64,000 bases of DNA from a virus. The translations under genes and the position numbers were made by a program. Shown piece by piece: positions 1 through 51,312 of the stretch. The notes below the pieces were generated by a model. That model was not told the origin of the DNA. It was given only the letters and a program-made list of their open reading frames with translations, and made no database searches. Within the stretch, counting starts at the first letter, position 1, and each line of letters opens with the position of its first letter. Location: IMG/VR virus record IMGVR_UViG_3300042940_001100, positions 32,001-96,000 of that record; one strand, 5' to 3'.

Positions 1-2
1 CA

Positions 3-3359: not shown

Positions 3360-3410
3360 ATGATTAATTAAAATAATAAAATAATAAGTATATTTAACAA
3401 TAAATAAAAT

Positions 3411-4877: not shown

Positions 4878-4888
4878 AATAAAAAGAA

Positions 4889-6100: not shown

Positions 6101-6110
6101 ACTAATAAAT

Positions 6111-19901: not shown

Positions 19902-19915
19902 TTTTAATATATTTG
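19884..19915 (+). promoter_or_regulatory. Bacteroidota sigma-A type promoter (-33/-7)
   Basis: TTG(19885-19887)-N20-TATATTTG(19908-19915), 4 nt upstream of ATG 19920. Matches the established TTTG/TAnnTTTG consensus. Confidence 0.55.
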
Positions 19916-19919
19916 TACT

Positions 19920-22739: not shown

Positions 22740-22743
22740 TAAC

Positions 22744-24864: not shown

Positions 24865-24885
24865 TTATATTTAAAATTTTAACAC

Positions 24886-26199: not shown

Positions 26200-26263
26200 T
26201 AAACTTTATAAGTGTATTACTATACCATATAAATTTAATAGATTTACAATATAAAATTAACTC

Positions 26264-35000: not shown

Positions 35001-35061
35001 TGCTATGGACAAAGCTGTAAACAAAAGAAAAGATGATTTTTTAAATAACCTTTGTATATAA
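29068..35061 (+). CDS. Giant ejected virion protein with membrane-like segments and PD-(D/E)xK nuclease domain
   Basis: 1997 aa. Gly/Ala-rich hydrophobic helices in the N-terminal third. GEMDMLVIDKDGNLKIYDFKTG...YGLQLSLY at ~33091-33267. Confidence 0.7.
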   Translation: MAEELSNQEQDAASSEEYKVSVKPPDYQALTENAKNIVADIKAGMNLPARPTAIDTYSNVAGNPITGSNPGSKKATSGLDYINALHSTVQAKAAESISPFAELRPYTYSGDMDASKFERYYATGDLYNKLGFSPYRDNESLYNNNMTFGDQFTRAAKQWDNLVGVGFMSGLRSWKTMFTDPLAPDIEGARDMERYTSIGSSSAGGLGGFFTNTFLNSAYTVGVGANLLAENLALMGVGTAVKGVTTALRAPAMLEKAMGAFKSADVVADFTKINPMDGVRALGETIPEARSFWNTIGKGAKKVGVGALDIINPLDNTIDALRAKDYATNYAKVAGTFGAFADDMLMMKAAVSEAKLEGGMSKINITKDLIEDYRQRNGRDPEGVDLTNIEKIADEKAHTVAFWNMPAIMTSNKLLYATMLAPLRKVMGKQVAGTVDDYILKDKTYSVLGEDFISRAGAAVKSLGKPNTYGKFGMNYLTANFAEGIQENIQEALSEGASQHALELFRDPIKANYEGYMPYFLKGIKSQFSAQGAETFAGGFLMGAFAQPIMAAPSIGISKIIEAATTDSVRAKELEEERAKHKAETAETLTEFYNNTLNYLAPDLPNAVRTGRLSDDMFSAARVGDKLGTISAQEAIKNHHIITAARTGKLDVMIDRAKDYKNLTKEEAVEAFGKYGVEAQDVDKAMAHIDGIVERAKEIKDDFEDVANRYPNPFNPSNFRIGSPEFIAAAVAKTSWDEAAHNLIFAKATFKSHSKRIADIANTFSKLSSALAKGDVNLLTSMLSSTTMTNEINMLRKEIATLDDSLPEQSKIKKQKLKHLEGIQAFYKAIENYQYAKTDAEKAMVEKRAKDAFAKHLKNIADKNDVPVFDEELDAAFSLIRDHMLLKDQQTGLVKNINVLMTPDSFFQFQKRLYSTYAEGVYNIPDTIGHNLDRHTFTKDLNDIINDIRGLGFNIPQDVIASYSDAYFAGEELLPLVFLLDSNGVKITSGPAFEKANGIWNTFIELTSKKRKTIEAMEYDQDNFLTYPEELKQILTDEYNDLSDEIKAAQNLEDWATGDANIGIRKLFFEGRAAETQGIEERYKSMTIPELTTALEELAEQAKTDPKLDAKVTVLQDYIAYRAVEAVDMPEKQKQALRNMKAQAANTQNRDKDNEKYILNGKKLDTRVTTVVQEILAKKYGLSPFNFPNTGYGKEILKDQKDMLEQLIEEKQDKNIIVNIWADTVSNTRAYKDRWDDSKTALLKETLKEKFTYEDFEKAVSSLAYQESKTGGNTVDEIARNFLTGTPISKPGNMTQEAFNKLRGILKDLMNTIRERGEIILAKDLFLKGEVIIDGVKQTIGGEMDMLVIDKDGNLKIYDFKTGRNYKWEMYGTEADEKGTDTKDPTLYKKGYGLQLSLYKRLIEEQTGLTVDSNKLTIVPFIINVSNNGMINDIELSNEDKNIIHEYNPVVEEYIPVTKTAAYSPQPFVQAIEVLSDKSKTDPEFETIGKYSISKPSIDKDGKEIVTVESTTRPGKGMTYIVNTDENGSVISLTPKNNPKQHIVNEKLLVAVEIKRNKYEYNSPTINNIAKDEEKYNKVKELLPAVTVLENTLNLGLDNSITSALNNLYANKPLDRASLIAIQLWANGAAKRLDSFLQNEYKDNAEFTKAWENMYLINELVEERLNTLAEEEVEEKPVIEEPAVKRQPGKSVDQLLRERDKELKFIQEKRKELGIEFDPLDDVPMSVVITMDRFDNNLPIDPVALSETSDWLYNKYKEIDDMLLDPKRMLTQAQIKQYKKALEKDITALENYKQEQYGEKIIQNETARSTSTTTGETRGTVSRDKTVVEKTSFDEPIKGKTKKHREAKVKKAVEKAAKENAVVTTETEEELFPKVYTVETINAELNLQSLQEAKAQKLEVEYKGNRYKIKRVGKKSVTLYAPNRDDVNIKEEDLAKELTVVEPGVKKATVEETEQVVKNEELVNTTERVFEEIPTDKTAMDKAVNKRKDDFLNNLCI
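34457..34615 (+). CDS. Candidate overprinted small ORF (52 aa) inside the 1997-aa gene
   Basis: ATG after an A-rich leader (aactataaacaagaacaat); translates as MEKKSFRMRLLEAQVPQQEKQEEQSQETKQLLRKLVLMSLSKEKLKSIEKQK*. Confidence 0.25.
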   Translation: MEKKSFRMRLLEAQVPQQEKQEEQSQETKQLLRKLVLMSLSKEKLKSIEKQK

Positions 35062-35065
35062 TAAG

Positions 35066-38000
35066 ATGGTTTGTGATTTAAGTAAAAATAACCTAAAAGA
35101 AAAACTAGAAAGTTATGTTAATGCTTTACTAGTAAAGAGCTACACTAATGACCCAACTTTTGATTACAAGAAAATAGTAGACACAATCTACAAAGATGTT
35201 CTTGGTAAAAGCAATGATGAGAATCTAGCTTTGGGTATGGCTTATCATGTACCACAGATGATATTTGATCTTGTTACTGATAACAAAAAACAACTAGGTC
35301 TTAAAAATCTAATAACTAAAGGTTATGATGTTGGTGTTTTGAGTGCTGAAATAGATAAGTTAGCTACTTCTATAGATAAGCTAGGAGCTGTTGCAATACT
35401 TTTAGGTAAACCAATAAAGAGTTTAGATGAGATTGAAACATTTGTAGCTAACCAACCTACTGATCAAGCAACTATGCTATTATCTGTACCAGGTACAAGT
35501 CTTACTGTAGATACTCTTGTGTTAGCTTCTAATGCCGGATTCTTTGCTACATCACAAAGTGGAGCTGAGATAGATAAAAAAACAAACTTGCCTTTTGCAT
35601 CTAAGTCTAATGAAGATGCTGCTTTCTACCAAGGAGTATTATCCGGTATAATGGCTGCTAAGAGACCTGATGATAATGACTTTAGTAAAGTTACTTTTGG
35701 TAATCATACAGGTTTTGCAGGAAGACTGATGTTTGAAAGAAGCATTCCTGGTAAGATCCGCCTAGATAGAGAAAGTCAGTTAGCTTATGAGATACTATCA
35801 TTTGTACTTACTGATAGCAAGACAGGAGAAATATTATATTTTAAACCTGATAATACTATAGGTGATATTGATAATGGTAGACCTATATACCTCTTGCTTA
35901 AAACAACAAACCCAAAAAATAAAGATTTTGAAAAGCACAAAGCTGCTATAAAAGCAAGTATGATGTCTATGTTAGATAGAACTAACATGACAGCTGAGCA
36001 AATAGAAAATGCAAAAAAAGAAGCTGATAAAGTAATCAGTAACCAACTAGAACAAATAGAAGCAGCTAAAAGAAAAATAAGATTTGGTGAACCTGTTCCT
36101 GTAGATATAACAGGAGGCTTTAAAGGGGCAACCCAAAATGTAGATAACATTGTTGGAGAGGAAACTAGAAAAAAACTTACTTTTCCTTTATCTGAGTTTG
36201 ATGTAAATGACAAAGCAAAACAGTCTATAGTATTTACTGTAGAAAATGTTAGTGGTCAACCAGAGAATCTACCAGCTATACAGTTTCCTAATGTAGATAA
36301 TCTTATTAGTTTAAAGAATCCAAATAAAATAGGAGAAAAAGCGGAAGATGCTGACATCTTAAATAACATAGTAGATATACTTACACAAGATCTTAAGGTT
36401 GGTGATAAAGCTGTACCTGATATAGACAAGGTTGACAATGTTGGTCAATACATACAATTAAAAGCAAAAAACTATACAATAGGTACAACCCTTGTAAATG
36501 GTGACCAAAAGTTAGAAATTAACTTAGGTGGTAATGTTTTAGATCTGTCTGATAAAGAAGCAGCTAGAAGAGTATTAAAAGACTTCTTGGGTAAAAATGC
36601 TACTATACATTTTCACAAGAAGAGCTATGATAAAAATAGTTATACTGCTTTTAAACTAACACCAGACAATGGTGCTTTTAATGTTAGTAAGTCTGATGAA
36701 GATTATTACAAGTTTATAAGTCCTAGGTTGTATCCTAGACTTGTCCGTGATGAAAGAACCAAACTACCTATGGTACTTAATGGTTACTTTAGATTTCAGC
36801 CTGTAGTTACAGCAAAAGAAGTTGCTGACAAAGTAGAAGAAGTTACAAAAGAAGTTGTAAAAGAAGAAGTACCTGTAACTAAAAAACAAGCAGAGGAAGA
36901 CTATGATGAGTTACTACGTTCTAGATTACTAGATAGCATAGTTACTCCTGAAGAAGATGCTGAAGCAAAAGCTTGGTGGGAAGAATCAGCTTTGTCTAAA
37001 GCTACTTATAAAGATGAGAATGGTGTTGTAAAACCTCTTTTTACTCTAAACCCATTAAGAAATGCTGTAAACTCTGAAGCATGGGCTAGCTTCCGTGACT
37101 CTGTGATTACTTTATATGAGGGTGCAAATTACTCTCATGTGTATCATGAGGCTTGGCATGCTTTTAGCCAGACTTATCTTACTTATAGTGAGAGAACTAA
37201 GTTCTATAAAGCAGTATCTAAACTTCCAGGATCTTTTAAAGTAGCTAAAGCAACTGGTCAAGGTAATATTGAACTTGTTGATGTTGAGTTTAGTAAAGCT
37301 GAAAGAAAAGAGTTAGAAGAGTTTATAGCTGAAGAGTTTAGAACATATGCTTTGAACAAAGGCAAGTTTAAAACTGAGAATGAAAAGACTAATATCTTTA
37401 AGTGGATATTTGACAGAATATGGAAAGCTTTAAAGGCTTTAGTTGGAGGTTCAACTGCTATAAACATTTACTCTAACCCTGGATCAGAAGGTGTATTAGG
37501 TGAGATCTTTAACACTTTGTATACAGCAAAGTCTCAAGAACAACTCCTTCCTTATGCATCTAATATTAAAAATGGTGAGTTTGGTTTATTAAACTCTGGT
37601 GTTGTTAATAAAGAACATCCTGAAGATGTGCTATCTTTATCTGAAAGCTTACTTGTAAGTAAAACTATAGATGGTATTATATCTAAAGCAACTACTGAAA
37701 AAGTACAGTCTGGATCTCTCAGTGCTGCAAGCTTGATATTCAGAAGTCCAAAGGAACTAAAGAAAGTATATGAAAAAGCTTTAACTGAACTTAGTGATAA
37801 GAGAGAAGAGTTTTTAAAGCAATTAAAAGCTTTACCTGCAGACAAAGTTGTAGAAAAAGCTGTACTTGATAATAAAATATCTGTTCTTACCAGAGCAACA
37901 AAGCCTTACATGTATGGTAACATAACTCAGATTTTAGAAGGTACAAATGTTACAGATTCTATCATTGCTTTCCATAGACAGAACAGTGAGTTCAAAGACA

Positions 38001-41000
38001 TGTTTGTTAAGTTTAAAATAAGCAAAGAAGAAGCTGTTGACTTAGATGAAGAACAACTTGAGAACAACTTAATAGGTAGAAACTTTGATGCTGGAAATAG
38101 CAGCACTGAATCTGAGAAGTTAGCTAATGAGCTTACTGTTTATATAATTAAGAGTTTACTTAAACAAAATAAAGATGGAAGCTATGTTCTTAATGAACTA
38201 GGTTTTCCTGAGCCTATAGAATTCAAACCTTTTTGGAGAGTTATGATGGACAAGTGTTCTGGTGAAACCAGTATCATGGGTCTTTATAACAAAATAAAAA
38301 CTGCAGGTAATACTGTATCTCCATTATTCAAACAGTTACTTGACAAGATCTTTAAGTTAAAAACAATATTAGATACTGATAATAAAGAAATAACTTTATC
38401 AGAAGAACAAAGTATGGCTGCCTTCATAACAGAAGGTAGTGTTACAGGTGAGATGTGGATGAAACTTGTTCAGTCTTTTAACTTATTCAGAATAGACCTA
38501 GTTAATGTAAACATTACACAAACTGATGAAGGTATAGAAGTTAAGGTTGGTAAGTCAAGTGCTGAGTATCAAAACATTATAAGAAACTGGCAATCTGCAT
38601 ACCAACAAAAAGAAGCTGATAGACATACTGCTAAGAACAAAGATAAAGTTAACTATATCAATACTAAGAATGTTGTAGAAGACTACATACAAAAGAAATA
38701 TAATGATGCCGGTAAACTATTTGTAACGGTAGCTAAAGAAGACTATGTACCATTTCTTAATAGTATAGGTATTAATCTTTCTGATACAGAAGAGATTAGA
38801 GAGTTTCTTCAACCTAATGATGTTAGATATTTAGCTGAGACTATTGTAAAAATAGATGACTATATAAATGATATAGAAAAGAACTATAAAGGTTTACAAA
38901 AAGAAGAGAAGCTAAAAGAAATCCAAAAGATACTTTCTGCTCCTATAGATCTTTTTAGAACAGGTAAATCATTACCTAACAAAGAACCTATAACAAACAG
39001 TGGTGGAACAGTTAACAGTCTTGCTAATCTAGAAGCTAACTTCTCTGAAGAATATGCTAGTGGTATGAGACTTACACCAGATGGTGAAAAGAAATCTGTG
39101 TTTTCTTTAAACAGCACGGATACTCAAAAGGTTAGAGCATTACAAAATGCTAAACAAAAAGGTGATCTTTCTAGTGATCATCCTGAGTTTATGCATATGA
39201 ACTACTTAAACCCAGCTAACAATCCTGAGGTTAATGGTTCTGTGTACATGAAGTCAATGTTTGATCCTTCTGGTAAAAGAATTAGTAATAATATCAACAT
39301 CTTTGACTTATCTGGTTCACAGTTTAATGTTGATAGAAAAGATGAATCTTCTACTATAGGTATTACATACTCTAAGATGAATGCTACTGATAAGTTTATA
39401 TCAGACTTTATCTCAACCTTAACTGCAGGATTTATGCAAGGTATTTTACCAGGTGATAAGAGTTCTTACTATTCTTTAAAGATTGACAACATTACTACAT
39501 ACACTAATAAGAAAACAAACTACTTGTTTGTAGATACTTCTGCATTCTTAAAGAATAAAGATGGTGTAAATGTAGCTGGATATGATGGTATGGATAAAAC
39601 CATAGAGATATTATATCCTAAGTTAGAAGGAGAGATCAGAAGGATAGCTATGATCAAAGCTGCTCCTGAGTACTATAAAAACATAAAAGGTTTTGAAAAA
39701 GGAGAAGAGTTTACAATCTTTTCTGAAATGCTAGACTCTAAAGACAATCTTAAAGAAAAGTTAGCATCTGCTGAGTTCTTTAAGAAGTTTGCTGAATCTA
39801 ATATGAGTCTTATGGACTTTTTAAATATGTCAGATAATCTAGCTTTAAAAAAGAAGATAGATGCTAACATCAAAACATACTTTGAAAAGCTTGTAAAAGA
39901 GTACAACAAAAACTTGTTTGAAAAAACCTTTGGTAAAACAGCTGTCTTACCTAATTCTATAAACAAAACATTAAGCACTATTATACTTAAAGAACTTACT
40001 GCTGATCAAATACAAGCATTAGGTGATAACTATAACTCTAATATAAAAGATGCAGCAATGATGTCTTATATGGTAAATAACTTTTTACATAAGACAGAAA
40101 CAACATTGCTTCTACAAGGAGACGGCTTTCAGTTTGATCATTCTAAAGATCAGGCACCTAAGCGTACTCCAGGATCACAATCTGGTGGTAGAGTATTTGC
40201 TGTAGATAAACTTACTCAGCATTGGGTAAACACTAAAGTAGGAAGACCTCTTGAGGAAAAACTACTTAAAGAAAATGCTATTAAAAAAGAAAATGGTAGC
40301 ACTGAAGTAACAAAGTATAATGGTATATACAACACGGCTATAATAAAAGAGAGCCAAGTAGGTTCTGTGTACTTTGAAATGTATAGAGATCTTTTCAAGA
40401 AGATGTTTAAAGAAAAAGGTCTTGAAGGTGATGCATTAAATATAGCTCTGTATGGACAAGACACGGATGGTAAAATAGGAACAGGAGCTAGAAAAGCAGA
40501 TGGTACTTATGATACTTATGGCGGCAAGATGAATCCATATGCTAAGATTAAGGATGGTGATGGACAAGGTTGGATAACATTTGACTCTTACAGAATACTT
40601 AAAAGAGTAGAAGGTCAATGGAGTAATGCACAAGAAGATGCATACATGAAAATTGTAAGAGGTCAGGTTTTAGGAGCTGATGAATTATCAGATCTATTCC
40701 CTGTATACAAGCTTCAGTATAATGGTAATTTAGCTACTGAAACTGGTAGATATCCGGTACAAGCTTTCCACAAGTTCTCTTTGTTTCCGCTTATTCCAAC
40801 TGTTATAAAAAACTACCCTGCAGAACAAATGCATCTAGCAATGATGCAACAAAATATTGACTATGCATTATTTGAGTCAGGTTCTAAGAGATCTCATATA
40901 AAACCTAGTGCTGATGTTAGTGGAGATGTGATATACAACAATGGTGATACAAGTGATATCCTACCAAAAGATAAAATAAAGTTTACTAAAAATAGTGTAT

Positions 41001-44000
41001 ATGTTACATATCTTAAAAATCAGACTGATGTAAACAGCACATTCAAAGAATTTTCTACATTTTCTACCCAGTTAAGAAAGTTATTACCTGGGGGATTATA
41101 CAAGAATGGTTTACCTATAGACTATAAAGGAACTAAAGCTCAATGGGATAAACTAACTGATGCACAAAAAAGAAAAGAAAGTGAGTTTCATGATCTTGTA
41201 ACAAACTTTAAAGATAGTTTAGATAGACTTGTATATCATGAGTATAAAAATCTATTAGATGATTTAAACTGGACAGAAGAAGATGTTGAAAAAGCAGTAG
41301 CTAGTCCGGAAGCTATGGAAAAAATGATTACTTTCTTAATAAAAGAACTTAAAGAACAAGGCTTTAGTGATCATGAGATATCTATTCTACAAACGGATAC
41401 TAACTATAACACTATAGACTTTAGTATAAGCCCTCTTGCAGCAAGATTTGAAAAACTTATAATGTCTGTTATAAACAACCGACTTATAAGACTTAAACTT
41501 AGAGGTGAGCCTTTAGTTGAGGTATCCTCAGCTTTAATGCAAAACCCTAAGTTTAGAAATGCTACAAGAGAAGAACAAAAAAAGTATAATTACTTTAGTA
41601 CTAACGGTTTACCTTCTTATATAGTAGATCTAGCCGGCAAGAAAAACAATATAGGTTTTGGATTTAAAAGAGCTCTTAGAGAGATGGATCAAAATCTTTT
41701 CCAAACTATTTACTATGTTAAAAATGAAAAAGGTCAATATGTACCAGCTCTAGATAAGAACAAAAACAAAATTAAAATTGCTGTATACAAAACTACTAAA
41801 GATGAAAATGGTAAAGAAACTAAGTCTTTAGATATTGAAGCTAGTCTTGACAGACTTAATGAGATGTTATTGGTAAAAGAGTGGAAGCTTGATGATGAAA
41901 ACTTTAAAAAGCTAAGACTAACAGGTGTTAGGATTCCTGTACAGGGAGACAACTCTATGGAGTTTGGTGAAGTAGTTGAGTTTTTAAGTCCCGATGCTGG
42001 TCCTATTATCATTATCCCAGCTGAGCTTGTTGCCAAGTCTGGTACTGACTTTGACGTAGATAAGATGACTACTTACTTACCATACATAACCCGTACTGGT
42101 AAGTTATTAAAAGATAACATGTCAGAAGAAGCTTTAGAGAAAAAGATAGAAACTTTAAAAGAAAAGCTTAATAAGTATAAAAAGACTAAAGAAGCTATTG
42201 AGTTATTCAAGACTGAGAAGTCTGCTAAGTGGATGGATATAGGTCCTTCTTTTAACAAGTTTAGAAAAGCTATATTCAAAGATGTTAAAACCATGACTAA
42301 TACTTTAAGTGAAGAACAACTTAAAGCTTTAACAGGTAAAAATAGAGATATCATAAAAACTCTAGAACAACCTGGCATGGATGCTGTATTAAAGAATTTT
42401 AAAAGAGCATATAAGATCTATAACAGTGAAATAAAAGGAGCTACTCTTGAAGATATTAAAAATGTTGAAGAAGGTTTAGCTAACATGTATGAACAAAAAA
42501 GTGAGCTAGCCGGTGTTTATGATGAACTAAGCGATGCTCAAGAACACAAGAACAACTATATATCAGCTATTCAAAATAGATTAATAGAAGATATTGTAAA
42601 CATACTTCAGTTACCTGCAAAGGCTGCATCATTACTTTCTCCTAATGATACTAATATAATTAAGCCAATTGCTGATAATATGAAAGAGTATATCCAAGAA
42701 GCTGATGATGAAACAGATTATAGTAAGTCTTTAATTACAGGTAAGAAAGTAGCTAAAGGTGTTGTACCAGGTGTTATCTTTAGAGAGGATTATAACAATA
42801 AAAAACATCAAGAGTTTACTGTTAGTAAAGACTCCTTAGGTATTGCTGCTGTAGATAATCCTATTAATATTCTACTTAACCAAGCTGGTGCTAAGATGAA
42901 TAAATCTATGGCCAGTACTGGTTATACTTGGAGTAAAAAACAAGCTAATTATGTTAAATCAAAGGATATGTTTATACCTATAGATTTAAACCTTAAGCAT
43001 AACAAACTTGATGGTGCCATATCACTATCGCATATAATAGATACTAATGACAAACATGACATAGCTGAGGTTATAAATCAGTTAATGAATGGTTTGGTAG
43101 ATGCTGGTAATGATCCTTTTGTAGCTTACTTACAGGGTAATACAGATGTAGTACCTAAGGTTTTATTCATGCTAGAAGCAGGTGTCCCTTTTGAGCATAT
43201 TGCTGCTTTTGTAAATAATCCAATATCAAGAGCTTATGTAGCTGAAAAGAACAAACAGAAATCTGTTTTTTCAAAGCTTATCTATGGTTACCAACACATA
43301 CCAGGTGATTCTAAAAAAGCTGTAAGAACAGAGATGTTACAAAAGATAGGTCTTAACTTTAACTTTTCACCTAGTACTTTTGCTAACTTAGTTAGTATAG
43401 AGATAAATTCTGGTAATGTAATTGATACAGGTAACATACACGGTTTCTATAATGGTCTACAAGAACTATATGAGCCTGAGTACTTTACAGAAGGAAACTT
43501 AAATGCTATAGCTAAACAAGATGTTGACTTATCTAATAAAGAACAAGTTGCTGGTTTCTTACAGTACTTATACATAGAAGATCTTATTAAGGACTATGAT
43601 GACATGAAGAAGGCCTTCAACCCGGATACTAACAAAGTAAGTGATTTATTCTCTAGTCAAGCTAAGATTGAAGAAGTAAATGCTGTTGCTGAGTCAAGAT
43701 CTCTTGATTATGGTATTTTTGACTTTATAAGATATAAAAGTATTATTTCTCCTTTCTTTATACAGGAGCTTGCTAGAAAGTTGTTTAGTAGATTGTTTAA
43801 ACTAAGAGATAGTAAAATAGTAAATGATTTTCTTCTTGATCAGACAAAGAACTACACTAAAATGACTGATATCAAAAAGACTACAGGCTATGATACTGAA
43901 ACTTATGTTATAAAGTTTAAGAACTTTTTAGCACAATATATTTTTGCTAATGAGTTAAGACAATATGATCCTAAAAGCAAAACATACAAGGGTAGACAAA

Positions 44001-47000
44001 TATCACAAGCTTTCTTAGATCAAGCTAATAAAGACTTTGATGAAGAAAATTACTCTATCTATAGTAAAAGTCTTGACTCTTATAAAAGTCGTGGTCTAGC
44101 TCCTATAAACCCTGCAGCTTTTCAGTTTAGCAGAGGCTCACAAGATGGTGAAGCATATTTAAAATCTGTAGCTAAAATAAGACAAGACTTTATTGAGTTC
44201 ACTCTTGAGAGAGAATACTTAAGAAGAACTGTTCCTATGGCTAGCCTTTTAAATACTAAAGAATTTGAGCTTAGAAGAACAAGACTTATTGAGACAGATC
44301 AAAGAGTATATCAACAAACAAGTACTGAATCACAAGAAGAGTATGATGAGAGATTAAACAAGATGACTTATGAAGATTATCTTGCTAACCAAGCTCTTAA
44401 AAATACTTATAATATCTGGCAGTTATTTAGATCTGGTGATAATACAATAGCTAGAGAGCTTATGGATATTATCCAAAACTATAAAGAAATAGGTGATAAT
44501 ACTAACTACTCTATACTACAACAGTTTGCCCCACAAGGTATTTCCAATAGAAGTGATTTAGCCGGTATAAGTAACTTTCAACTTAAGAACTATTCTAACT
44601 TAGATGGGGGTCTTATAAATGACTACTTTAATCAATGGACAAACTTAGCTAATCCTGGTAAGTTTAAGATACTAGGAGAGAATACACAAGCAACAAAAGC
44701 TAATGCTTATGTAAGTAACTTTTTTGCAAAGCTTCCTATCTATGCTTTCTTACAATCAGGTATGGACTCAAGCCAATTCTCTTTATCATCTGTTATGCCT
44801 TATGATAAATACAAAGAGATAATGGAAAGAGCATCCGGTAACTTCTTAAGTAGATTAGATAAAGAAGATGCTAAGAAGATCTTGGGTGGTATAAATGAAC
44901 TATTTATTATAGAGAATTCAGTTAACAGAAGTAAGAAACCACTAAGAAACAGAGGTTTATTAGTAAAACAACCTACCCTTAACTTGCCTGTAGCTAATAC
45001 TAACTTATATGAGCAACCATTCTTAAAAGAAGTTGAGCAAGATATATTTGAGATGGATACCTTTACTATGAATGGTAGAACTGTTACTATAGATGCTAAT
45101 GATCCTATAGTAAACTTACTAAGAAATGGTAATAAAGATACCATATTCTTAATGAGTCCTTCTGACTTGTTTAAGTTTCAAAATACATACTTAACAGCTG
45201 ATGAAGTAGATCAGGCTATACTTGACTATCATGTAGCTACAGATAGACTTAAAGCTACAGGTAAAAAGATTGTAGTAAATGTAAACAACTTTGGTGGCAA
45301 AAAAGTAGCTAAGGTTGAACCATCTACAGCAAACATCCCGGGTGTTGAAACTACAAAAGTGATTGCTAACCCTAAGATAATATCTGATGGTGATCTAGCA
45401 GCTTTCAAAATGGAGGTAGATAAAAACAAAGGCACCTTACCTAAAACATTCTTTACTAATAATAACATGACTAAGTGGTTGCTTAATAGCAAGAACTTAT
45501 ATGACTTAGTAGATAAAGTAACCGGTGAGATATATCTTAGAGATGTAAACCTTGAGACAGGTATATCTGAAGCTCCTCTTCCTGCTATAAAAACAGCACC
45601 TGCTCTACCTACTACTACTACTCAGCCAGTTAATAGATTATCAGGACAAATGACAATGTCTTATGGTAAAAATAAGAGATCTGATGTTACAAGTAACACA
45701 ACCTTTGATGCAATAATTAAAGGTGAAAGAACAGCTACTACAAGATATAGTAATAAAAAAGCTTTTGACTATTGGAAAAGTGCTAAGGTTGGTGATATAA
45801 TAACTTGGGAATCTGCTGATGGTAGAACAGTTGATGTTGTTGTTACAAAAGCTCTTCATCCATTGAAAGGTTCAGATAAAAATCCTGAGTCTTGGTCTAA
45901 GTTAGAAGGTTGGTCTGTAGATTACTTTGAAAATAAAGTAAGACCAGAACTTGATAATGCATGGCAAATAGAGTTTAAACTAGCTGAACCTACACAAAAC
46001 ATTCAACCACAAGTTTCTACAGATAAAACAAGACCGGTGTTTGATTCACTTCCTGGAAAATCTGCTACACCTACTATGACTTATGCTGGTATAGGATCTA
46101 GAGAAACTCCAAAAGAAGTTCTTGATCTGATGACTAAAGCTGCTAACTATCTTGATGGTTTAGGCTACACTTTACAAACAGGCTTTACTTTTAAAAATAA
46201 AGAAACAAGTTTAGATGAAGAAGGTGCAGATAAAGCTTTCTCAGATGGAAGTAAAAACAAAACTTTGTTTGGTCCTTATGGTATAAGAAAAACTATTAAT
46301 GGTGTTACATCTGTTGATAAGTATAATGAAAATGTTACTGAAAAGTCCAACAGTATAGTTAAAGAAATACACCCTGCACCAGATAGATTAACACCAGGAG
46401 CAGTAAAGCTTATGGCTAGAAATACTAACCAAATCTTTGGTAAAAATCTTGATAGTACAGTAGACTTTGTATTATTCTATGCTCAAGAAACAAAAGATCC
46501 TTTAAGACCAAAAGGTGGTACAGGGCAAGCTGTTGAAATGGCAAGAAGAAAAGGTATACCTACTATTAACATGGCAGATGCTAATTGGAGAGAACAATTA
46601 AAAGCAGCTATTGCTAATAAGTCTTCTGCTCAACCTATCACTCAACCAGCTGCTGTAGAAAAGACTCCTCAACCAGGTGATGTAGTATCTTATAATGAAA
46701 AGCCATATTTATTATGGAATATTAATGCTGCTGGAAAAGCACAACTTACTGATCCTGATGGTACCAAGTTTACAGGAACTCCTAACATAGACAAATTAGG
46801 TTATATAAAAACTTTACCTAAAGTAGAGTTTAACAATAAGATGTTTGTTGTAGATAGTAAGAATAAAATATTCTCATTATCTACTGGTAATGAGGTATAC
46901 AAAAAAGCTGCTGAGAGATCTCAGATTCTTGATAAACTTAAGAGTTCTACTACTCAACCATCTACTGGTGTTGAAGTTAAGGAAGTTATACCTCAATATG

Positions 47001-47989
47001 GTGTAGTACAAGCTTCAACAAATCCTACTAAAGAGTTTGATAACAAATTAGTAAATGCAATATCAGACAACATTAAGAAAAATGCTTATGTTGAAAATGG
47101 TAGTAACACAGCTAATCTTATGTTTAGTTATGGATGGCAATGGAAAGGTAATAATACCAAAAATGTTACAGGAGAAAAATTAAAAGTTCAACCAGCTCAA
47201 GTAGATTTTAATGCTACTGGTAAATTACAACCTATTAAACCTTATTATTTTTATGACTCTAAATATAATGATGGCACACCAGTACCAAACATTAAAGAAT
47301 TAGATTTCTTAAAAAGACATATAGAAAAAACATTAGGTATTGATATGTCTAACTATGACATTGCTTTAAATAATATATATACTAAGGGTACAAAATTATA
47401 TAGACATACTGATATTGATGAATCTAATACTGCTAAAGGTTATCCAGTTGTAGTATATGTATTAGGTAATGAACATAAAGTAAGAGTTGATGATAACGGA
47501 GGTAAAGCAGTAAGAGGAGCCGGTCAAATGGTAAATCCTAAAACACTTACATTACGTAATGGTGATATTTATACATTTGGTATGGATGGTAAAGGTAGAT
47601 TTGAAGCAGTACATGATGTTATTGAAGCACCAAAAACTGATTCAAGTTTTCCTCCAATTACATTACCTGATGGTACAGTTACTAGTAACTACACTGTAAC
47701 TTTTACATTCAGAAGAGCCGCTGATTTAGAGCCCGAAATGCCAACTGCACCAGCTAAACTTACTACACAACCAGCTGTTCAACCTACTACTACAGATGTA
47801 GAGCCAGATATTGTAAACAAAAAGCAAGAACTACTTAAAAAGATAAATAAGGCTGTTAGACAAACAAACTTAACTGAGCTATTAGCTGAAAAAGGTTATG
47901 ATGTAAAAGATATTATTAGTAACTTGGAGGCTGTTAAAACACAAGAAGACTTAAATAAAATAAACAAAATACTAGATAAGTTATGCTAA
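35066..47989 (+). CDS. Virion-packaged DNA-dependent RNA polymerase polyprotein (crAss-like vRNAP) with zincin protease and C-terminal ASCH-, SLOG- and AlkB-like domains
   Basis: 4307 aa. Catalytic GTDFDVDK (42047-42061) preceded by RIPVQG; DGQGW and TQLRK motifs of crAss-like RNAPs; HEAWH...EEFIAEEF zincin (37145-37159). Confidence 0.85.
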   Translation: MVCDLSKNNLKEKLESYVNALLVKSYTNDPTFDYKKIVDTIYKDVLGKSNDENLALGMAYHVPQMIFDLVTDNKKQLGLKNLITKGYDVGVLSAEIDKLATSIDKLGAVAILLGKPIKSLDEIETFVANQPTDQATMLLSVPGTSLTVDTLVLASNAGFFATSQSGAEIDKKTNLPFASKSNEDAAFYQGVLSGIMAAKRPDDNDFSKVTFGNHTGFAGRLMFERSIPGKIRLDRESQLAYEILSFVLTDSKTGEILYFKPDNTIGDIDNGRPIYLLLKTTNPKNKDFEKHKAAIKASMMSMLDRTNMTAEQIENAKKEADKVISNQLEQIEAAKRKIRFGEPVPVDITGGFKGATQNVDNIVGEETRKKLTFPLSEFDVNDKAKQSIVFTVENVSGQPENLPAIQFPNVDNLISLKNPNKIGEKAEDADILNNIVDILTQDLKVGDKAVPDIDKVDNVGQYIQLKAKNYTIGTTLVNGDQKLEINLGGNVLDLSDKEAARRVLKDFLGKNATIHFHKKSYDKNSYTAFKLTPDNGAFNVSKSDEDYYKFISPRLYPRLVRDERTKLPMVLNGYFRFQPVVTAKEVADKVEEVTKEVVKEEVPVTKKQAEEDYDELLRSRLLDSIVTPEEDAEAKAWWEESALSKATYKDENGVVKPLFTLNPLRNAVNSEAWASFRDSVITLYEGANYSHVYHEAWHAFSQTYLTYSERTKFYKAVSKLPGSFKVAKATGQGNIELVDVEFSKAERKELEEFIAEEFRTYALNKGKFKTENEKTNIFKWIFDRIWKALKALVGGSTAINIYSNPGSEGVLGEIFNTLYTAKSQEQLLPYASNIKNGEFGLLNSGVVNKEHPEDVLSLSESLLVSKTIDGIISKATTEKVQSGSLSAASLIFRSPKELKKVYEKALTELSDKREEFLKQLKALPADKVVEKAVLDNKISVLTRATKPYMYGNITQILEGTNVTDSIIAFHRQNSEFKDMFVKFKISKEEAVDLDEEQLENNLIGRNFDAGNSSTESEKLANELTVYIIKSLLKQNKDGSYVLNELGFPEPIEFKPFWRVMMDKCSGETSIMGLYNKIKTAGNTVSPLFKQLLDKIFKLKTILDTDNKEITLSEEQSMAAFITEGSVTGEMWMKLVQSFNLFRIDLVNVNITQTDEGIEVKVGKSSAEYQNIIRNWQSAYQQKEADRHTAKNKDKVNYINTKNVVEDYIQKKYNDAGKLFVTVAKEDYVPFLNSIGINLSDTEEIREFLQPNDVRYLAETIVKIDDYINDIEKNYKGLQKEEKLKEIQKILSAPIDLFRTGKSLPNKEPITNSGGTVNSLANLEANFSEEYASGMRLTPDGEKKSVFSLNSTDTQKVRALQNAKQKGDLSSDHPEFMHMNYLNPANNPEVNGSVYMKSMFDPSGKRISNNINIFDLSGSQFNVDRKDESSTIGITYSKMNATDKFISDFISTLTAGFMQGILPGDKSSYYSLKIDNITTYTNKKTNYLFVDTSAFLKNKDGVNVAGYDGMDKTIEILYPKLEGEIRRIAMIKAAPEYYKNIKGFEKGEEFTIFSEMLDSKDNLKEKLASAEFFKKFAESNMSLMDFLNMSDNLALKKKIDANIKTYFEKLVKEYNKNLFEKTFGKTAVLPNSINKTLSTIILKELTADQIQALGDNYNSNIKDAAMMSYMVNNFLHKTETTLLLQGDGFQFDHSKDQAPKRTPGSQSGGRVFAVDKLTQHWVNTKVGRPLEEKLLKENAIKKENGSTEVTKYNGIYNTAIIKESQVGSVYFEMYRDLFKKMFKEKGLEGDALNIALYGQDTDGKIGTGARKADGTYDTYGGKMNPYAKIKDGDGQGWITFDSYRILKRVEGQWSNAQEDAYMKIVRGQVLGADELSDLFPVYKLQYNGNLATETGRYPVQAFHKFSLFPLIPTVIKNYPAEQMHLAMMQQNIDYALFESGSKRSHIKPSADVSGDVIYNNGDTSDILPKDKIKFTKNSVYVTYLKNQTDVNSTFKEFSTFSTQLRKLLPGGLYKNGLPIDYKGTKAQWDKLTDAQKRKESEFHDLVTNFKDSLDRLVYHEYKNLLDDLNWTEEDVEKAVASPEAMEKMITFLIKELKEQGFSDHEISILQTDTNYNTIDFSISPLAARFEKLIMSVINNRLIRLKLRGEPLVEVSSALMQNPKFRNATREEQKKYNYFSTNGLPSYIVDLAGKKNNIGFGFKRALREMDQNLFQTIYYVKNEKGQYVPALDKNKNKIKIAVYKTTKDENGKETKSLDIEASLDRLNEMLLVKEWKLDDENFKKLRLTGVRIPVQGDNSMEFGEVVEFLSPDAGPIIIIPAELVAKSGTDFDVDKMTTYLPYITRTGKLLKDNMSEEALEKKIETLKEKLNKYKKTKEAIELFKTEKSAKWMDIGPSFNKFRKAIFKDVKTMTNTLSEEQLKALTGKNRDIIKTLEQPGMDAVLKNFKRAYKIYNSEIKGATLEDIKNVEEGLANMYEQKSELAGVYDELSDAQEHKNNYISAIQNRLIEDIVNILQLPAKAASLLSPNDTNIIKPIADNMKEYIQEADDETDYSKSLITGKKVAKGVVPGVIFREDYNNKKHQEFTVSKDSLGIAAVDNPINILLNQAGAKMNKSMASTGYTWSKKQANYVKSKDMFIPIDLNLKHNKLDGAISLSHIIDTNDKHDIAEVINQLMNGLVDAGNDPFVAYLQGNTDVVPKVLFMLEAGVPFEHIAAFVNNPISRAYVAEKNKQKSVFSKLIYGYQHIPGDSKKAVRTEMLQKIGLNFNFSPSTFANLVSIEINSGNVIDTGNIHGFYNGLQELYEPEYFTEGNLNAIAKQDVDLSNKEQVAGFLQYLYIEDLIKDYDDMKKAFNPDTNKVSDLFSSQAKIEEVNAVAESRSLDYGIFDFIRYKSIISPFFIQELARKLFSRLFKLRDSKIVNDFLLDQTKNYTKMTDIKKTTGYDTETYVIKFKNFLAQYIFANELRQYDPKSKTYKGRQISQAFLDQANKDFDEENYSIYSKSLDSYKSRGLAPINPAAFQFSRGSQDGEAYLKSVAKIRQDFIEFTLEREYLRRTVPMASLLNTKEFELRRTRLIETDQRVYQQTSTESQEEYDERLNKMTYEDYLANQALKNTYNIWQLFRSGDNTIARELMDIIQNYKEIGDNTNYSILQQFAPQGISNRSDLAGISNFQLKNYSNLDGGLINDYFNQWTNLANPGKFKILGENTQATKANAYVSNFFAKLPIYAFLQSGMDSSQFSLSSVMPYDKYKEIMERASGNFLSRLDKEDAKKILGGINELFIIENSVNRSKKPLRNRGLLVKQPTLNLPVANTNLYEQPFLKEVEQDIFEMDTFTMNGRTVTIDANDPIVNLLRNGNKDTIFLMSPSDLFKFQNTYLTADEVDQAILDYHVATDRLKATGKKIVVNVNNFGGKKVAKVEPSTANIPGVETTKVIANPKIISDGDLAAFKMEVDKNKGTLPKTFFTNNNMTKWLLNSKNLYDLVDKVTGEIYLRDVNLETGISEAPLPAIKTAPALPTTTTQPVNRLSGQMTMSYGKNKRSDVTSNTTFDAIIKGERTATTRYSNKKAFDYWKSAKVGDIITWESADGRTVDVVVTKALHPLKGSDKNPESWSKLEGWSVDYFENKVRPELDNAWQIEFKLAEPTQNIQPQVSTDKTRPVFDSLPGKSATPTMTYAGIGSRETPKEVLDLMTKAANYLDGLGYTLQTGFTFKNKETSLDEEGADKAFSDGSKNKTLFGPYGIRKTINGVTSVDKYNENVTEKSNSIVKEIHPAPDRLTPGAVKLMARNTNQIFGKNLDSTVDFVLFYAQETKDPLRPKGGTGQAVEMARRKGIPTINMADANWREQLKAAIANKSSAQPITQPAAVEKTPQPGDVVSYNEKPYLLWNINAAGKAQLTDPDGTKFTGTPNIDKLGYIKTLPKVEFNNKMFVVDSKNKIFSLSTGNEVYKKAAERSQILDKLKSSTTQPSTGVEVKEVIPQYGVVQASTNPTKEFDNKLVNAISDNIKKNAYVENGSNTANLMFSYGWQWKGNNTKNVTGEKLKVQPAQVDFNATGKLQPIKPYYFYDSKYNDGTPVPNIKELDFLKRHIEKTLGIDMSNYDIALNNIYTKGTKLYRHTDIDESNTAKGYPVVVYVLGNEHKVRVDDNGGKAVRGAGQMVNPKTLTLRNGDIYTFGMDGKGRFEAVHDVIEAPKTDSSFPPITLPDGTVTSNYTVTFTFRRAADLEPEMPTAPAKLTTQPAVQPTTTDVEPDIVNKKQELLKKINKAVRQTNLTELLAEKGYDVKDIISNLEAVKTQEDLNKINKILDKLC

Positions 47990-50900
47990 ATAGTTGTCCT
48001 AATGAATCCTCACAAGAGTGGAAAGACATACTAAAAGAAACCAATGGTAATAGAGAAAGAGCTTTAGAGCTATGGGAGGAAAGAGGTTTTGCTGATAATG
48101 AAGATCTTAACAGTGAACCAGAAGCAGAAAAAGAAGAGGTTCCTGATATTGATCCTGAAAAGGACACAGCTTTTGGCAAGCTTATTGGTTCTATCAAAGT
48201 TTTTGTTAATAAACAACTTGCTATTCTACAGCAAAAAGTGGTAAGGGATCAAGAAACAAAAGAAAAAAAACTACAAGATCTTATCAAAAATATAGAGGCT
48301 GCAGAAGGTGTAGATTCTATATACATATTTATTAAAGATGCATATAACAATGCTAACAGAGCAAAAAAACAATTAGAAGATCTTATAAAAAATAAAGATG
48401 CTTATGATAGAAAAGATCTGATGGGTAAGATGTTAGCTATATCTGATTTTATTAATGGTTACTCTATATTAGATGAGTTAAATAATGCTGACTTAAAAGA
48501 GTACTTTATGCAAAGAGTAAGTATAAAGATACCAGAAGGTGAACTTACTCCACAACAACTTGTAAGTGCAGCTATTGCAACAAAAAATGATATAAAAGCA
48601 AGATACATAAATCAAGGTATACCTTTGATGGCTGACTTTTTATTAGGTTATACTACTGAGTTGGGAGCTACTATTCTTGACCAAATAGATACACTGAACA
48701 AGCGTATTAAAAACTTAGCTTTTGAAAATCTAAGTGATAAGAAAAAAGAAGAAAGAGCAAAAGAGTACCAAGATAAAATAGATAAACTACAATCTTTTTC
48801 TTTAAATAAAAAAACACTTGTTGAAGCTCTTAGAAGTTTTACCTCTGATACAGGAGTACTTAGTTTCTTAATGGATCCACTTATTAGTTCTGAAGATTCA
48901 GTTTTAGCTCTATTTGCTAAAGCGGTTAAGAGTCAACTAGAAAATGCCCGGATGAAGGATGATGATAACTTAAAATATGTAGGCAAAGCTTTTGATAATT
49001 ATAAAGCATCTAACACTGCTAATAGAGATAACCCTGCAAAGTTTAATGAAGGTATATATGAAACAGTAACTGTTACCTATACAGATAAAAATGGTGAGAA
49101 AAAGACTGCAGAAAGAATAGACTTTGTACAAAAGTATGATCAAGAAAAGTTTAAGCAAGCTAGAAAAGCTTTCCGCAAGTCTTTAGGCGAAGCTCCTAAG
49201 TTATCTGAAGTCCCTACTAAACAGGAAAAAATAAAGCTTAAAGAATACATATCCAAGGTTGCTGCCTGGAACAGAGAAAATACAGAGCCTAAACCTAAAG
49301 AGGAGATAGACAAGATCATAGCAGCAAAAGAAAAACAAAGGAATGCTAATCTTATAACAGAAGAAGAATATAACAAGTGGAAAAAGTCTGTGATGTATAC
49401 AGACAAGTTTGGTAATACTACTTATAAAAGAGAACTATCACAACCTGCAAAAAAATATATAAGTACTAAGTGGTTAGCTATGTACGATGTTAATGATAAG
49501 CCTAAAAATAATAAGGGTGAATATCATAAAGCTCTACTAAAAATATACTTTGAAGCACAAGATAAATTGCCGGCTTCTAAAAGAAGAGGTTTTAGAGTAC
49601 CTTCTGTACCAAAGTCTGACCTAGAAAGAGCTATAGCAAATGGCCTTATAGATCTAACAAAACAAAATTTCTCAGATGCTATTAATGTTAAAGTTTATGA
49701 TCCAGAATTTGGTCTAGCTGGTCTAGGAGAAACAGAAGCAAAGTTTTTACCTGTTCACTACACACAAGCTATGAATGCAGAAAATGTTAGTCTTGACTTA
49801 GCAAAGTCAGTACTGTTATTTGCAGCAATGGCTAATAGATATGAAGCTTTAAATGAGATACACTCAGAAATATCTATGTTCCAAACTATTATAGGAGATA
49901 GAAAAATTGCTGAAACTAATAGTAAAGGTGAGCCTATTCTTGATGCTTTTGCTAATAAGCAAGGTTATGTAGAGTACATTAAACAAAATGGAGAAGCTTA
50001 TTCTAAAAAACATGTAGATGCTTTTATAGATATGGTTGTCTATGGAGAGATGCAAAAGGCTGAAGAAATATTAGGTGTTTCTCTATCTAAAATAACAAAT
50101 ATTGGTACCGGTATATCAGCCGTTACTACTATTGCCCTAGATGTTCTTAAAGGTGTGGCTAATAACTTACAAGGTAATATACAGTTAATTATAGAAGCTA
50201 ACTCAGGAGAATTTTTTAATAAGAAAAATCTAGCTTTAGGTAAAGTTGAGTATATGAAAGAGTTACCAGGAATACTTGCTGACTTTGGAAAGTCTTACCC
50301 TGAAAGTTTTCTTGGTCAACTTATAAATAGATATGATCCTATGCAAGGAACATATAAAGATCATTATGGTAAAGATGTTACAGGTTCCGTAGCAAGCAAG
50401 CTATTTAGAACTAACACATTATTCTTTAACCAGCAGTTTGGTGAACATGAAATACAAGTATCATGTATGCTTGCTCTTATGGATGCAACTACAGTTACAG
50501 CTAAGGATGGTACCCAGATGACTTTGCTAAATGCTTATAAAAAGTTTGGAGTAACAGGTGTTGCTGAAAACACAGATTTTACAGAAAAGAAAAGACAAGC
50601 TTTACAAAATAGACTTCATGCTTTAAGTAAAAGAATGCATGGTGTTTACAATGATTTTGATAAAGGTACAGCTGGTAGATATTCTTTAGGAAGATTAGCT
50701 ACAATGTATAGAAAGCATCTTGTTCCTGGATACATGAGAAGGTTTAAGTCTTTATCAATGGATCAAGAACTAGGTACTATTACTGAAGGTTTTTATAGAA
50801 CTTTCTGGAATACTTTTGTAAGAGATCTTAGAGATTACAAATTTAATGTTGCACAAAATTGGTCTACATATTCAGCATTTGAAAAAGCTCAGATAAAAAG

Positions 50901-51312
50901 AGTAATAGCTGAAGCTACAATCATTATAACATCTACAGCTCTGATTGCTATACTAATGGCAGCCGGTGATGATGATGAAGATTTAAAGAAAAACTATGCA
51001 TACAACTTCACACTATATGAATTAATCCGTATGAGAAGTGAGACTTTCGCGTATATTAGTCTTCCAGATGCATACAGGGTTGTTAAGTCACCATCTGCTA
51101 TGACAGGAACTTTAGAAAGAGCTATCAAGTTTACTGATCAATTCTTCTTTACATGGGATCCTGAAGAACTAGAATTTCAAAAAAAGTCAGGTATATGGAA
51201 TCAAGGAGACAACAAATCATGGGCTTACTTCTTAAAACTTATGGGTTACTCTGGTTATAATATTAAACCAGAAGAAGCAGTAGAATCATTCAAAGGAACA
51301 CTAAACAAATAA
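47983..51312 (+). CDS. Large ejected virion protein with C-terminal hydrophobic helix
   Basis: 1109 aa, start overlaps the RNAP stop. N-terminal SCPN.SS.EWK; TM-like ATIIITSTALIAILMAAG followed by DDDE. Confidence 0.65.
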   Translation: MLNSCPNESSQEWKDILKETNGNRERALELWEERGFADNEDLNSEPEAEKEEVPDIDPEKDTAFGKLIGSIKVFVNKQLAILQQKVVRDQETKEKKLQDLIKNIEAAEGVDSIYIFIKDAYNNANRAKKQLEDLIKNKDAYDRKDLMGKMLAISDFINGYSILDELNNADLKEYFMQRVSIKIPEGELTPQQLVSAAIATKNDIKARYINQGIPLMADFLLGYTTELGATILDQIDTLNKRIKNLAFENLSDKKKEERAKEYQDKIDKLQSFSLNKKTLVEALRSFTSDTGVLSFLMDPLISSEDSVLALFAKAVKSQLENARMKDDDNLKYVGKAFDNYKASNTANRDNPAKFNEGIYETVTVTYTDKNGEKKTAERIDFVQKYDQEKFKQARKAFRKSLGEAPKLSEVPTKQEKIKLKEYISKVAAWNRENTEPKPKEEIDKIIAAKEKQRNANLITEEEYNKWKKSVMYTDKFGNTTYKRELSQPAKKYISTKWLAMYDVNDKPKNNKGEYHKALLKIYFEAQDKLPASKRRGFRVPSVPKSDLERAIANGLIDLTKQNFSDAINVKVYDPEFGLAGLGETEAKFLPVHYTQAMNAENVSLDLAKSVLLFAAMANRYEALNEIHSEISMFQTIIGDRKIAETNSKGEPILDAFANKQGYVEYIKQNGEAYSKKHVDAFIDMVVYGEMQKAEEILGVSLSKITNIGTGISAVTTIALDVLKGVANNLQGNIQLIIEANSGEFFNKKNLALGKVEYMKELPGILADFGKSYPESFLGQLINRYDPMQGTYKDHYGKDVTGSVASKLFRTNTLFFNQQFGEHEIQVSCMLALMDATTVTAKDGTQMTLLNAYKKFGVTGVAENTDFTEKKRQALQNRLHALSKRMHGVYNDFDKGTAGRYSLGRLATMYRKHLVPGYMRRFKSLSMDQELGTITEGFYRTFWNTFVRDLRDYKFNVAQNWSTYSAFEKAQIKRVIAEATIIITSTALIAILMAAGDDDEDLKKNYAYNFTLYELIRMRSETFAYISLPDAYRVVKSPSAMTGTLERAIKFTDQFFFTWDPEELEFQKKSGIWNQGDNKSWAYFLKLMGYSGYNIKPEEAVESFKGTLNK

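Follow-up and report, generated by a model that had tools for sequence, protein, structure and literature searches.

How a crassvirus stores megadaltons of cargo protein and passes them in order through a narrow tail is an open question. It is raised in a concrete form by the 64,000-nucleotide stretch analysed here (positions 32,001 to 96,000 of IMG/VR virus record IMGVR_UViG_3300042940_001100; hereafter the window, to which all coordinates refer unless another record is named), in which three consecutive genes on the + strand encode proteins of 1997, 4307 and 1109 amino acids, here called A, B and C. These proteins are nearly devoid of cysteine, and most of the few cysteines that they do have lie where the end of one protein faces the start of the next. 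Could these residues link the three proteins end to end, and is their placement peculiar to this phage or common to its relatives?

Cysteines of A, B and C Lie at Their Facing Ends

Genes A (29068-35061), B (35066-47989) and C (47983-51312), translated with table 11, contain no internal stops. The sole cysteine of A is residue 1996, second from the C-terminus (end NNLCI; TGT codon at 35053-35055), and there is none at its N-terminus. B has Cys3 (start MVC; TGT at 35072-35074), Cys4307, which is its last residue (end DKLC; TGC at 47984-47986), and the interior Cys1064 (38255-38257). C has Cys5 (start MLNSC; TGT at 47995-47997, within the motif ML[x]CP) and Cys828, and no cysteine at its C-terminus. 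At the A/B junction the DNA reads ...CTT TGT ATA TAA taag ATG GTT TGT..., and at the B/C junction ...TTA TGC TAA is overlapped by ATG CTA AAT AGT TGT, the codon of Cys4307 and the ATG of C sharing the string ATGCTAA. The translations bear out what a sequence-only reading of the window had claimed: a single, penultimate cysteine in A, one at residue 3, one at the last residue and one inside in B, and Cys5 plus one interior cysteine in C. Its count was also exact: four of the six cysteines in 7413 amino acids (aa) lie within five residues of the two junctions. For six uniformly placed cysteines, the probability of at least four falling in the 20 junction-facing positions is 7.9e-10, which is a post hoc figure. 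At the rate of the other open reading frames of this 122,320-base genome (1.96%), A, B and C together would be expected to have about 145 cysteines, and they have 6. The terminal-cysteine pattern of A, B and C is far beyond chance.

The Terminal Cysteines Are Conserved among Metagenomic Homologues

Homologues were counted among the matches listed (80 for A, 120 for B and the best 120 of 272 for C), and the eight residues at each end were inspected for cysteine. A homologues had a C-terminal cysteine in 78 of 80 cases and an N-terminal one in none of the 80; exactly one cysteine was present in 74/80, and interior cysteines numbered 5 in 158,616 residues. Among B homologues, an N-terminal cysteine (residue 3-8) was found in 111/120, a C-terminal one in 118/120 and both in 110/120, with 72 interior cysteines in 470,168 residues. 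Since 73 of the 120 B homologues have exactly two cysteines, Cys1064 of B, which is not conserved, lies outside the rule. C homologues carried an N-terminal cysteine (residue 3-6) in 119 of 120 cases, a C-terminal one in 0/120 and exactly one cysteine in 108/120, with 15 interior cysteines in 135,541 residues. Across the three families, interior cysteines thus make up 0.003-0.015% of residues.

In the alignments of B (A1, 30 sequences), A (A2, 34 sequences) and C (A3, 26 sequences), C3 and C4307 (A1), C1996 (A2) and C5 (A3) are invariant columns, while the adjoining residues vary and the identity of homologues goes down to 22-25%. The exceptions in the counts comprise an A homologue without any cysteine (P0145), two local matches restricted to 4% and 7% of the query length (P0200 and P0119), one protein labelled 'partial' by its source (P0023), a 940-aa protein that is shorter than its relatives (P0252), and eight B homologues that are shorter or have no Met start (P0003, P0004, P0046, P0061, P0062, P0077, P0082 and P0109). 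The sequence-only reading had named a lack of conservation, or of pairing, of the terminal cysteines among orthologues as a finding that would overturn it; they proved to be strongly conserved and paired, at the C-terminal end only in A, at both ends in B, and at the N-terminal end only in C.

Cysteine Pairs Accompany Breaks between Polypeptides in Annotated Phages

Crassviruses differ in how the same protein set is divided into polypeptides. We fetched 19 annotated records, of which 18 were resolved; the Bohxovirus record PV686213 was left out, as its open reading frames were fragmented and reading TAG or TGA as sense gave no long frames. The terminal-cysteine rule, i.e., that a cysteine flanks each break on both sides while the set has none at its outer ends, holds in the 18 resolved records, which are crAss001, phi14:2, p-crAssphage and 15 others.

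Four of these phages have A, B and C as separate proteins, among them cr116_1, in which B is itself split by an inserted gene. In crAss001, gp47 (A) has one cysteine, residue 2339 of 2341, gp50 (B) has Cys5, Cys1334 and Cys2404 of 2412 residues, and gp49 (C) has one, at residue 5; gp47 is encoded on the strand opposite to gp50 and gp49. In phi14:2, gp078 has Cys1797 of 1797 residues, gp077 has Cys3 and Cys2179 of 2180, and gp076 has Cys3, with no other cysteine in the 5398 residues of the three proteins. DAC15 shows the same cysteine pattern. Where A and B are fused and C is separate, the pair at the A/B position is lost. Thus, Fpv1 gp33 has one cysteine in 4401 aa, at residue 4400, and gp34 has Cys3, and the pair is likewise lost in cr50_1, cr114_1, cr1_1, cr118_1, cr115_1, cr7_1, cr4_1 and cr108_1; altogether, this pattern occurs in eight Suoliviridae records and in cr108_1. 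Where B and C are fused (p-crAssphage, ctbg_1, cr8_1 and crAss002), cysteines are present at the end of A and at the start of the fused protein, and none is present at the end of the latter. These fusion assignments are supported by BLASTP offsets. No relic cysteine pair was seen at the fusion points of cr114_1, cr50_1, p-crAssphage, ctbg_1 and crAss002, whose junctions were roughly mapped by BLASTP; the interior cysteines of these proteins lie away from the inferred junctions.

At 20 of 21 evaluable annotated breaks, a cysteine lies no more than 9 residues away on both sides, the 21st being that of crAss002. No cysteine was found at any visible outer end of the set in the 18 resolved records, a check that excludes the N-terminus of cr116_1 gp047 and the downstream partner in cr10_1, both of which are outside the fetched stretches. 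A negative control is provided by cr108_1 (MT774385), in which an intron-like gap of about 290 nucleotides with no open reading frame (14405-14696 of that record) lies inside the DFDxD polymerase motif (…AGSD / …YDIDKMY), so that two proteins are annotated; neither side of this false break has a terminal cysteine.

Additional, Absent and Moved Breaks

Breaks within the same genomes were followed in IMG/VR loci. On the B side, 80 loci were found by the C profile and walked upstream from C. Cysteines were present on both sides of 101 of 102 breaks, which represent 66 distinct junction strings, and the single miss was a frame cut by the locus edge. In 29 loci, a total of 30 separate modules (242-782 aa) stand between B and C, with two in a row in one locus (L084), and each of the 30 has exactly two cysteines, one at residue 3 and one at or near the end. 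The C-terminal 50-95 residues of these modules match the last 50-95 residues of B of the window (BLASTP; B 4213-4307), i.e., the stretch of about 95 residues that ends in Cys4307 (47702-47986). Judging from this match, the C-terminal tail of B may be a connector to C.

On the A/B side, 78 loci were found by the A profile and 60 were evaluable, with cysteines on both sides of the break in 57. In one of the three misses (L145), a frameshift in a run of A cuts off the MVNC start of B. In ten further loci, a single frame extends from A across the zincin motif of B up to the locus end, and in nine of them across DFDxD as well; these frames contain 0 cysteines in 41,240 residues.

The A/B break can also be found at a different place. 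Residues 670-795 of B, which contain the zincin segment, match residues 2133-2232 of crAss001 gp47 (hhalign, 94.3%, E value 1e-7). The break lies about 690 residues before HExxH in the window and about 185 residues after HExxH in crAss001. Both phages have a cysteine pair at their own A/B break and none at the position of the other's break. As far as sequence comparison can tell, the A/B break has shifted across the zincin domain and the cysteine pair has shifted along with it. The homology of this motif of B to that at the C-terminal end of gp47 also indicates that a protease-like module resides in different polypeptides in different lineages. Taken together, the conserved, lost, gained and moved pairs make it appear close to certain that a cysteine pair under selection is tied to the polypeptide breaks of this protein set.

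A, B and C as the Probable RNA Polymerase Cargo of a crAss-like Phage

The family of B matches phi14:2 gp077, a virion RNA polymerase of 2180 aa, over 1337 columns (hhalign with the alignment of B, 99.8%, E value 2.7e-30). The catalytic-type motif DFDVD is at residues 2328-2332 (42047-42061), within GTDFDVDKM (B 2326-2334), and in A1 the residues D2328, F2329, D2330, D2332 and K2333 hardly vary. The DFDxD motif is common to B, crAss001 gp50, phi14:2 gp077 and others, and is the catalytic site according to the abstract of the phi14:2 polymerase preprint. Other parts of B are a zincin-like HEAWH motif at residues 694-698 (37145-37159), nearly invariant in the B family, a DprA/SLOG-like domain (3670-3852) and an AlkB-like domain (4042-4190). 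These matches identify B as a crAss-type virion RNA polymerase with accessory domains.

The similarity of A to known proteins is confined to a part of it. A PD-(D/E)XK nuclease-like region (residues 1269-1448, 32872-33411), which gave a weak PF12705 match below the cut-off, aligns with residues 1712-1887 of crAss001 gp47 over 163 columns only (hhalign, 99.1%, E value 1.1e-18). Neither the A family nor the B family had a significant profile match to phi14:2 gp078 (7.4% for A). The C family matches phi14:2 gp076 over 644 columns (99.9%, E value 2.6e-36). Searches of PDB sequences with A, B and C (phmmer for B) returned nothing significant; B 1-700 as a lone query in the search for related loci found 0 relatives, and B 1-3000 had no match at an E value of 1e-5 by tblastn against 50,697 phage records. 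The known crassviruses were reached only via their own proteins and via profiles.

Because B, part of A, and C match the crassvirus polymerase and its partners, we assign the three genes, on sequence grounds, to the RNA polymerase cargo block of a crAss-like phage; upstream, the genome has PHROG matches to terminase, portal and major head protein families. A, B and C are probably packed in the particle and injected, as their homologues have been found in virions: crAss001 gp46, gp47, gp49 and gp50 were detected there by mass spectrometry, as reported in PMC10172136, and record notes state that homologous cargo proteins occur in virions. The phi14:2 preprint likewise places homologues of A, B and C in virions, and describes their fusion into one polyprotein in some phages.

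What the Cysteine Pairs May Do

As cysteines are present at facing ends, absent from outer ends and fusions, and new at splits, the pattern speaks for a pairwise end-to-end link. We consider it fairly likely, by analogy with a disulfide solved in the pre-ejectosome of cyanophage A4 (PMC12002296), that the facing terminal cysteines of A, B and C form inter-protein disulfides, which join the proteins in one linear chain in the particle. Selection would have purged nearly all cysteines from A, B and C, sparing one within a few residues of the C-terminus in the protein before a break and one at residue 3-6 in the protein after it. Each facing pair would then form a disulfide in the particle, and the proteins, joined N-to-C, would be a post-translational stand-in for the fused polyprotein of other crass-like phages. 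Such a link might keep the packaged proteins in fixed proportions, let them traverse the tail as a single thread without branches, or both, and might be opened by reduction in the host cytoplasm. An assembly of several proteins linked only at their ends would have no branches, a form well suited to being partly unfolded and led through the tail. Both ordered threading and redox release are plausible. Thus, of the chain that the sequence-only reading had proposed, the end-to-end link has gained support from the conserved, break-tied cysteine pairs, while the chemistry of the link, its stoichiometry, the ordered threading and the reductive release remain inference.

In a bolder form of this idea, which we hold to be possible and rather doubtful, the whole polymerase machinery would be a string of 'cysteine-capped' modules that can be freely cut, fused or inserted provided that each cut receives a cysteine pair, and that are rejoined by disulfides into a thread of at least 7,000 residues, separating in the reducing cytoplasm. 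If true, crass-like phages would have a modular substitute for polyprotein cleavage that is switched by redox state, and phages in general a route for delivering very large protein cargo.

The comparative pattern fits any end-to-end link equally, so that facing cysteines could also share a metal ion, e.g., zinc, in a site that is perhaps completed by the pairs of at least two chains, and form a non-covalent link with the same purpose. In favour of this, the other cysteines of the cargo block are in CxxC-type pairs typical of zinc sites, and the A4 proteins are reported to be present in five copies each (PMC12002296), which makes sites shared between chains conceivable. However, there is only one cysteine per end, no conserved His or second Cys was seen beside the terminal cysteines, and in the sole solved case of such geometry, that of A4, the bond is a disulfide. 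We regard a shared metal as unlikely. Nor are the odds good that each terminal cysteine acts alone, being bonded to a third component (capsid, portal or inner-body) or modified, with the pairing as a side effect. Two other proteins of crassvirus cargo blocks would suit this idea, as each has a lone C-terminal cysteine and no evident N-terminal partner nearby: p-crAssphage gp47 (BK010471, 5588-8161; 857 aa, only Cys856) and crAss002 gp30 (1393-3066; 557 aa, only Cys550). Moreover, disulfides to structural proteins occur in crAss001 tails, according to PMC10172136. Cysteines acting independently would, however, leave unexplained why the outer ends have none (0/80 starts of A, 0/120 ends of C, and none in the 18 resolved records) and why the number of C-terminal cysteines in a set always equals that of N-terminal ones.

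The counts for the three-protein state would fit equally well if B closed on itself through Cys3 and Cys4307, and the end of A bonded to the start of C. The fusions make this improbable: with A and B fused, the end of B and the start of C are left, and with B and C fused, the end of A and the start of B, so that residues that were not partners would have to re-pair each time. Furthermore, the small two-cysteine modules would each need to cyclise, and the bond solved in A4 is head-to-tail between neighbours (PMC12002296). Finally, the cysteines could have no function and be a by-product of start/stop overlaps, of relaxed constraint at the ends of cysteine-purged proteins, or of shared descent. 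The ATGCTAA overlap does force Cys or Trp at the end of B, the same overlap of -7 is common among relatives, and purging of cysteine from ejected proteins is described for N4-like phages (PMC11445570). As the origin of the terminal cysteine of B, the overlap was rejected, since relatives with a gap of -10 to +3, or with the genes on opposite strands, still have it. The terminal cysteines are invariant while their flanks vary, at 22-25% identity; free outer ends lack them, fused proteins have lost them and new breaks have acquired them, and the N4-like ejection proteins are, as reported in the same source, essentially cysteine-free with their termini included. The counts already contradict an absence of function, to which we give hardly any credence.

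Several points weigh against the disulfide-linked chain that we prefer, or limit the support for it. In this phage, as in every other crassvirus, the bond is a proposal, and the pairing of the end of A with the start of B, and of the end of B with the start of C, is tentative, although it accounts for the fusion states most simply. As the host cytoplasm is reducing, formation of the bond would be confined to the particle or to the time after lysis. The A4 precedent is an analogy, because no homology to A and C could be detected for gp27 and gp26 of that phage. The homologues share ancestry, and the IMG/VR loci were counted without de-replication, so that the raw counts are not tallies of separate events. 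Only changes of state provide independent evidence, namely fusions (in three groups or more), additional breaks and a single break that moved, and these changes, rather than the raw counts, carry the weight of the locus evidence. Individual cases fit imperfectly as well. In two of the A/B misses (L134 and L157), the only cysteine of A is 9th or 10th from the end; the C-terminal cysteine of crAss001 gp50 is 9th from the end; and in cr10_1, which resembles the records with A and B fused, the cysteine is 11th from the end, although this break was not counted, as the partner gene is off the fetched stretch. To fit, crAss002 needs a start moved to an internal Met-Ser-Cys. In cr116_1, B is interrupted by an inserted gene; as annotated, the piece upstream of the insertion has a cysteine at its end, and the piece downstream of it has none at its N-terminus. 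The lone C-terminal cysteines of p-crAssphage gp47 and crAss002 gp30 count here too; these proteins may be homodimers or be bonded to another partner.

Two further results leave the balance unchanged. A complex prediction for B 1-220 with A 1838-1997 gave a score of 0.02, which counts neither for nor against binding. No PF00085 (thioredoxin) match was found in this genome and several crassvirus records annotate a thioredoxin; nothing is drawn from either.

The rule of one cysteine pair per break is a concrete hypothesis with named residues, which can be tested in the cultured phages crAss001, phi14:2 and DAC15. If the disulfide-linked chain is real, it would explain how the protein set can be split, fused or subdivided across lineages without loss of function, and also the purging of interior cysteines, as links elsewhere than at the ends would branch the chain.

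The rule is also of use in annotation, as it can help to locate the true start of a gene (crAss002 gp33) and to separate real breaks from introns and frameshifts (cr108_1 and L145). In crAss002 (MN917146, 12088-12190), the start of gp33 is probably called 32 codons too early, and the internal Met-Ser-Cys matches the N-terminus of the family. In L145 (about 16700-16900), the frame of the B homologue is shifted within its first 60 codons at a run of ten A, owing to an error of sequencing or to a slippery site. In cr116_1 (NC_055882, 15618-16459), the 215-aa gene gp050 stands between the two pieces of the polymerase gene, as an intron with a homing-endonuclease-like gene or as a real split. The cargo genes of four Suoliviridae records (L012, L015, L016 and L020) each have 18-148 in-frame TAG and no in-frame TAA or TGA, which fits TAG reassignment in late genes.

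Surroundings of the Three Genes

A, B and C stand at the end of a cysteine-poor block (14634-51312) with 14 cysteines in 12184 aa (0.115%), in which the cysteines outside A, B and C occur in local CxxC-type pairs. The five genes upstream of A (14634-29068, + strand), which are part of the probable cargo block, have 8 cysteines in 4771 aa, all in close pairs; as none of them has a terminal cysteine, they are outside the proposed chain. Immediately upstream of the cysteine-poor block are four consecutive genes with 7-8% cysteine (3-6827; genome 31070-38827), one of which encodes a protein of 1429 aa with 120 cysteines in the whole-genome reading; their products are probably tail or receptor-binding proteins with many disulfides or metal sites. 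The N-terminus of A (29068-29082) is conserved as MAEE[LIT] in most homologues, and may be a leading-end or packaging signal. The ATGCTAA stop/start overlap (47983-47989) has the same length of -7 in most related IMG/VR loci, and its recurrence suggests translational coupling of B and C.

Comparison with Known Systems

A literature search on crassvirus cargo with cysteine or disulfide found no description of the terminal-cysteine pattern, the supplements and the journal version of the phi14:2 report being outside this search; the word 'cysteine' is absent from the main text of the crAss001 atlas (PMC10172136) and from the phi14:2 preprint. The cargo blocks of cultured crassviruses, phi14:2 g067-g066-g065 (gp078-gp077-gp076) and crAss001 gp47-gp50-gp49, consist of homologous proteins with the same terminal cysteines. 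B of the window differs from the polymerases of these phages in being twice as long, and in carrying the zincin, which is in gp47 of crAss001, and the DprA/SLOG-like and AlkB-like domains.

The closest structural precedent comes from the pre-ejectosome of cyanophage A4, for which cryo-electron microscopy revealed a disulfide that joins gp27 (Cys1715) to gp26 (Cys5), two consecutive ejection proteins (PNAS 2025, PMC12002296). According to this report, the C-terminal helix of gp27 lies in a cleft of gp26, and both proteins are packaged and leave the capsid at infection. In the record of the Anabaena phage A-4L, gp27 has 1717 aa and gp26 has 1114 aa, and their only cysteines are residues 1715 and 5, respectively. 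Thus, A4 resembles A, B and C in having a lone or near-lone cysteine near the C-terminus of the upstream protein and another at about residue 5 of the downstream one. However, it has one link between two proteins instead of a chain of three to five, the linked pair includes no RNA polymerase, and no homology was found between the A and C families and A4 gp27 and gp26 (hhalign, 0.3% and 0.2%). The available part of the report presents the bond as a stabilising detail, and states no rule of conservation or of fusion and splitting. If the cargo of crassviruses is indeed chained by disulfides, the single bond of A4 may exemplify a wider strategy.

That inter-subunit bonds form in crassvirus particles is shown by the structural disulfides of crAss001, which are reported for the gp57 dimer and for tail hub and ring proteins (PMC10172136). 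In contrast to the bonds proposed here, they join proteins of the tail and portal vertex, not cargo, and are not end-to-end.

The N4-like phages (Schitoviridae; N4 gp50, DEV gp71-gp73) share with A, B and C a giant virion RNA polymerase, ejected partners and a strong suppression of cysteine (PMC11445570), although the N4-like and crAss-type polymerases are described as being of different kinds (PMC13434306). In homologues of gp71, the reported cysteine content is 0.00075%, compared with 0.865% proteome-wide, and a suggestion cited in the same paper is that the suppression reflects passage through a periplasm with disulfide-forming enzymes (PMC11445570). The interior cysteine content of the A, B and C families is comparable to this suppression, and the conserved terminal cysteines depart from total absence. 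In the N4-like proteins, the suppression extends to the termini, whereas A, B and C keep a cysteine at each facing end; since the N4-like termini are cysteine-free too, these retained terminal cysteines are the new element of A, B and C.

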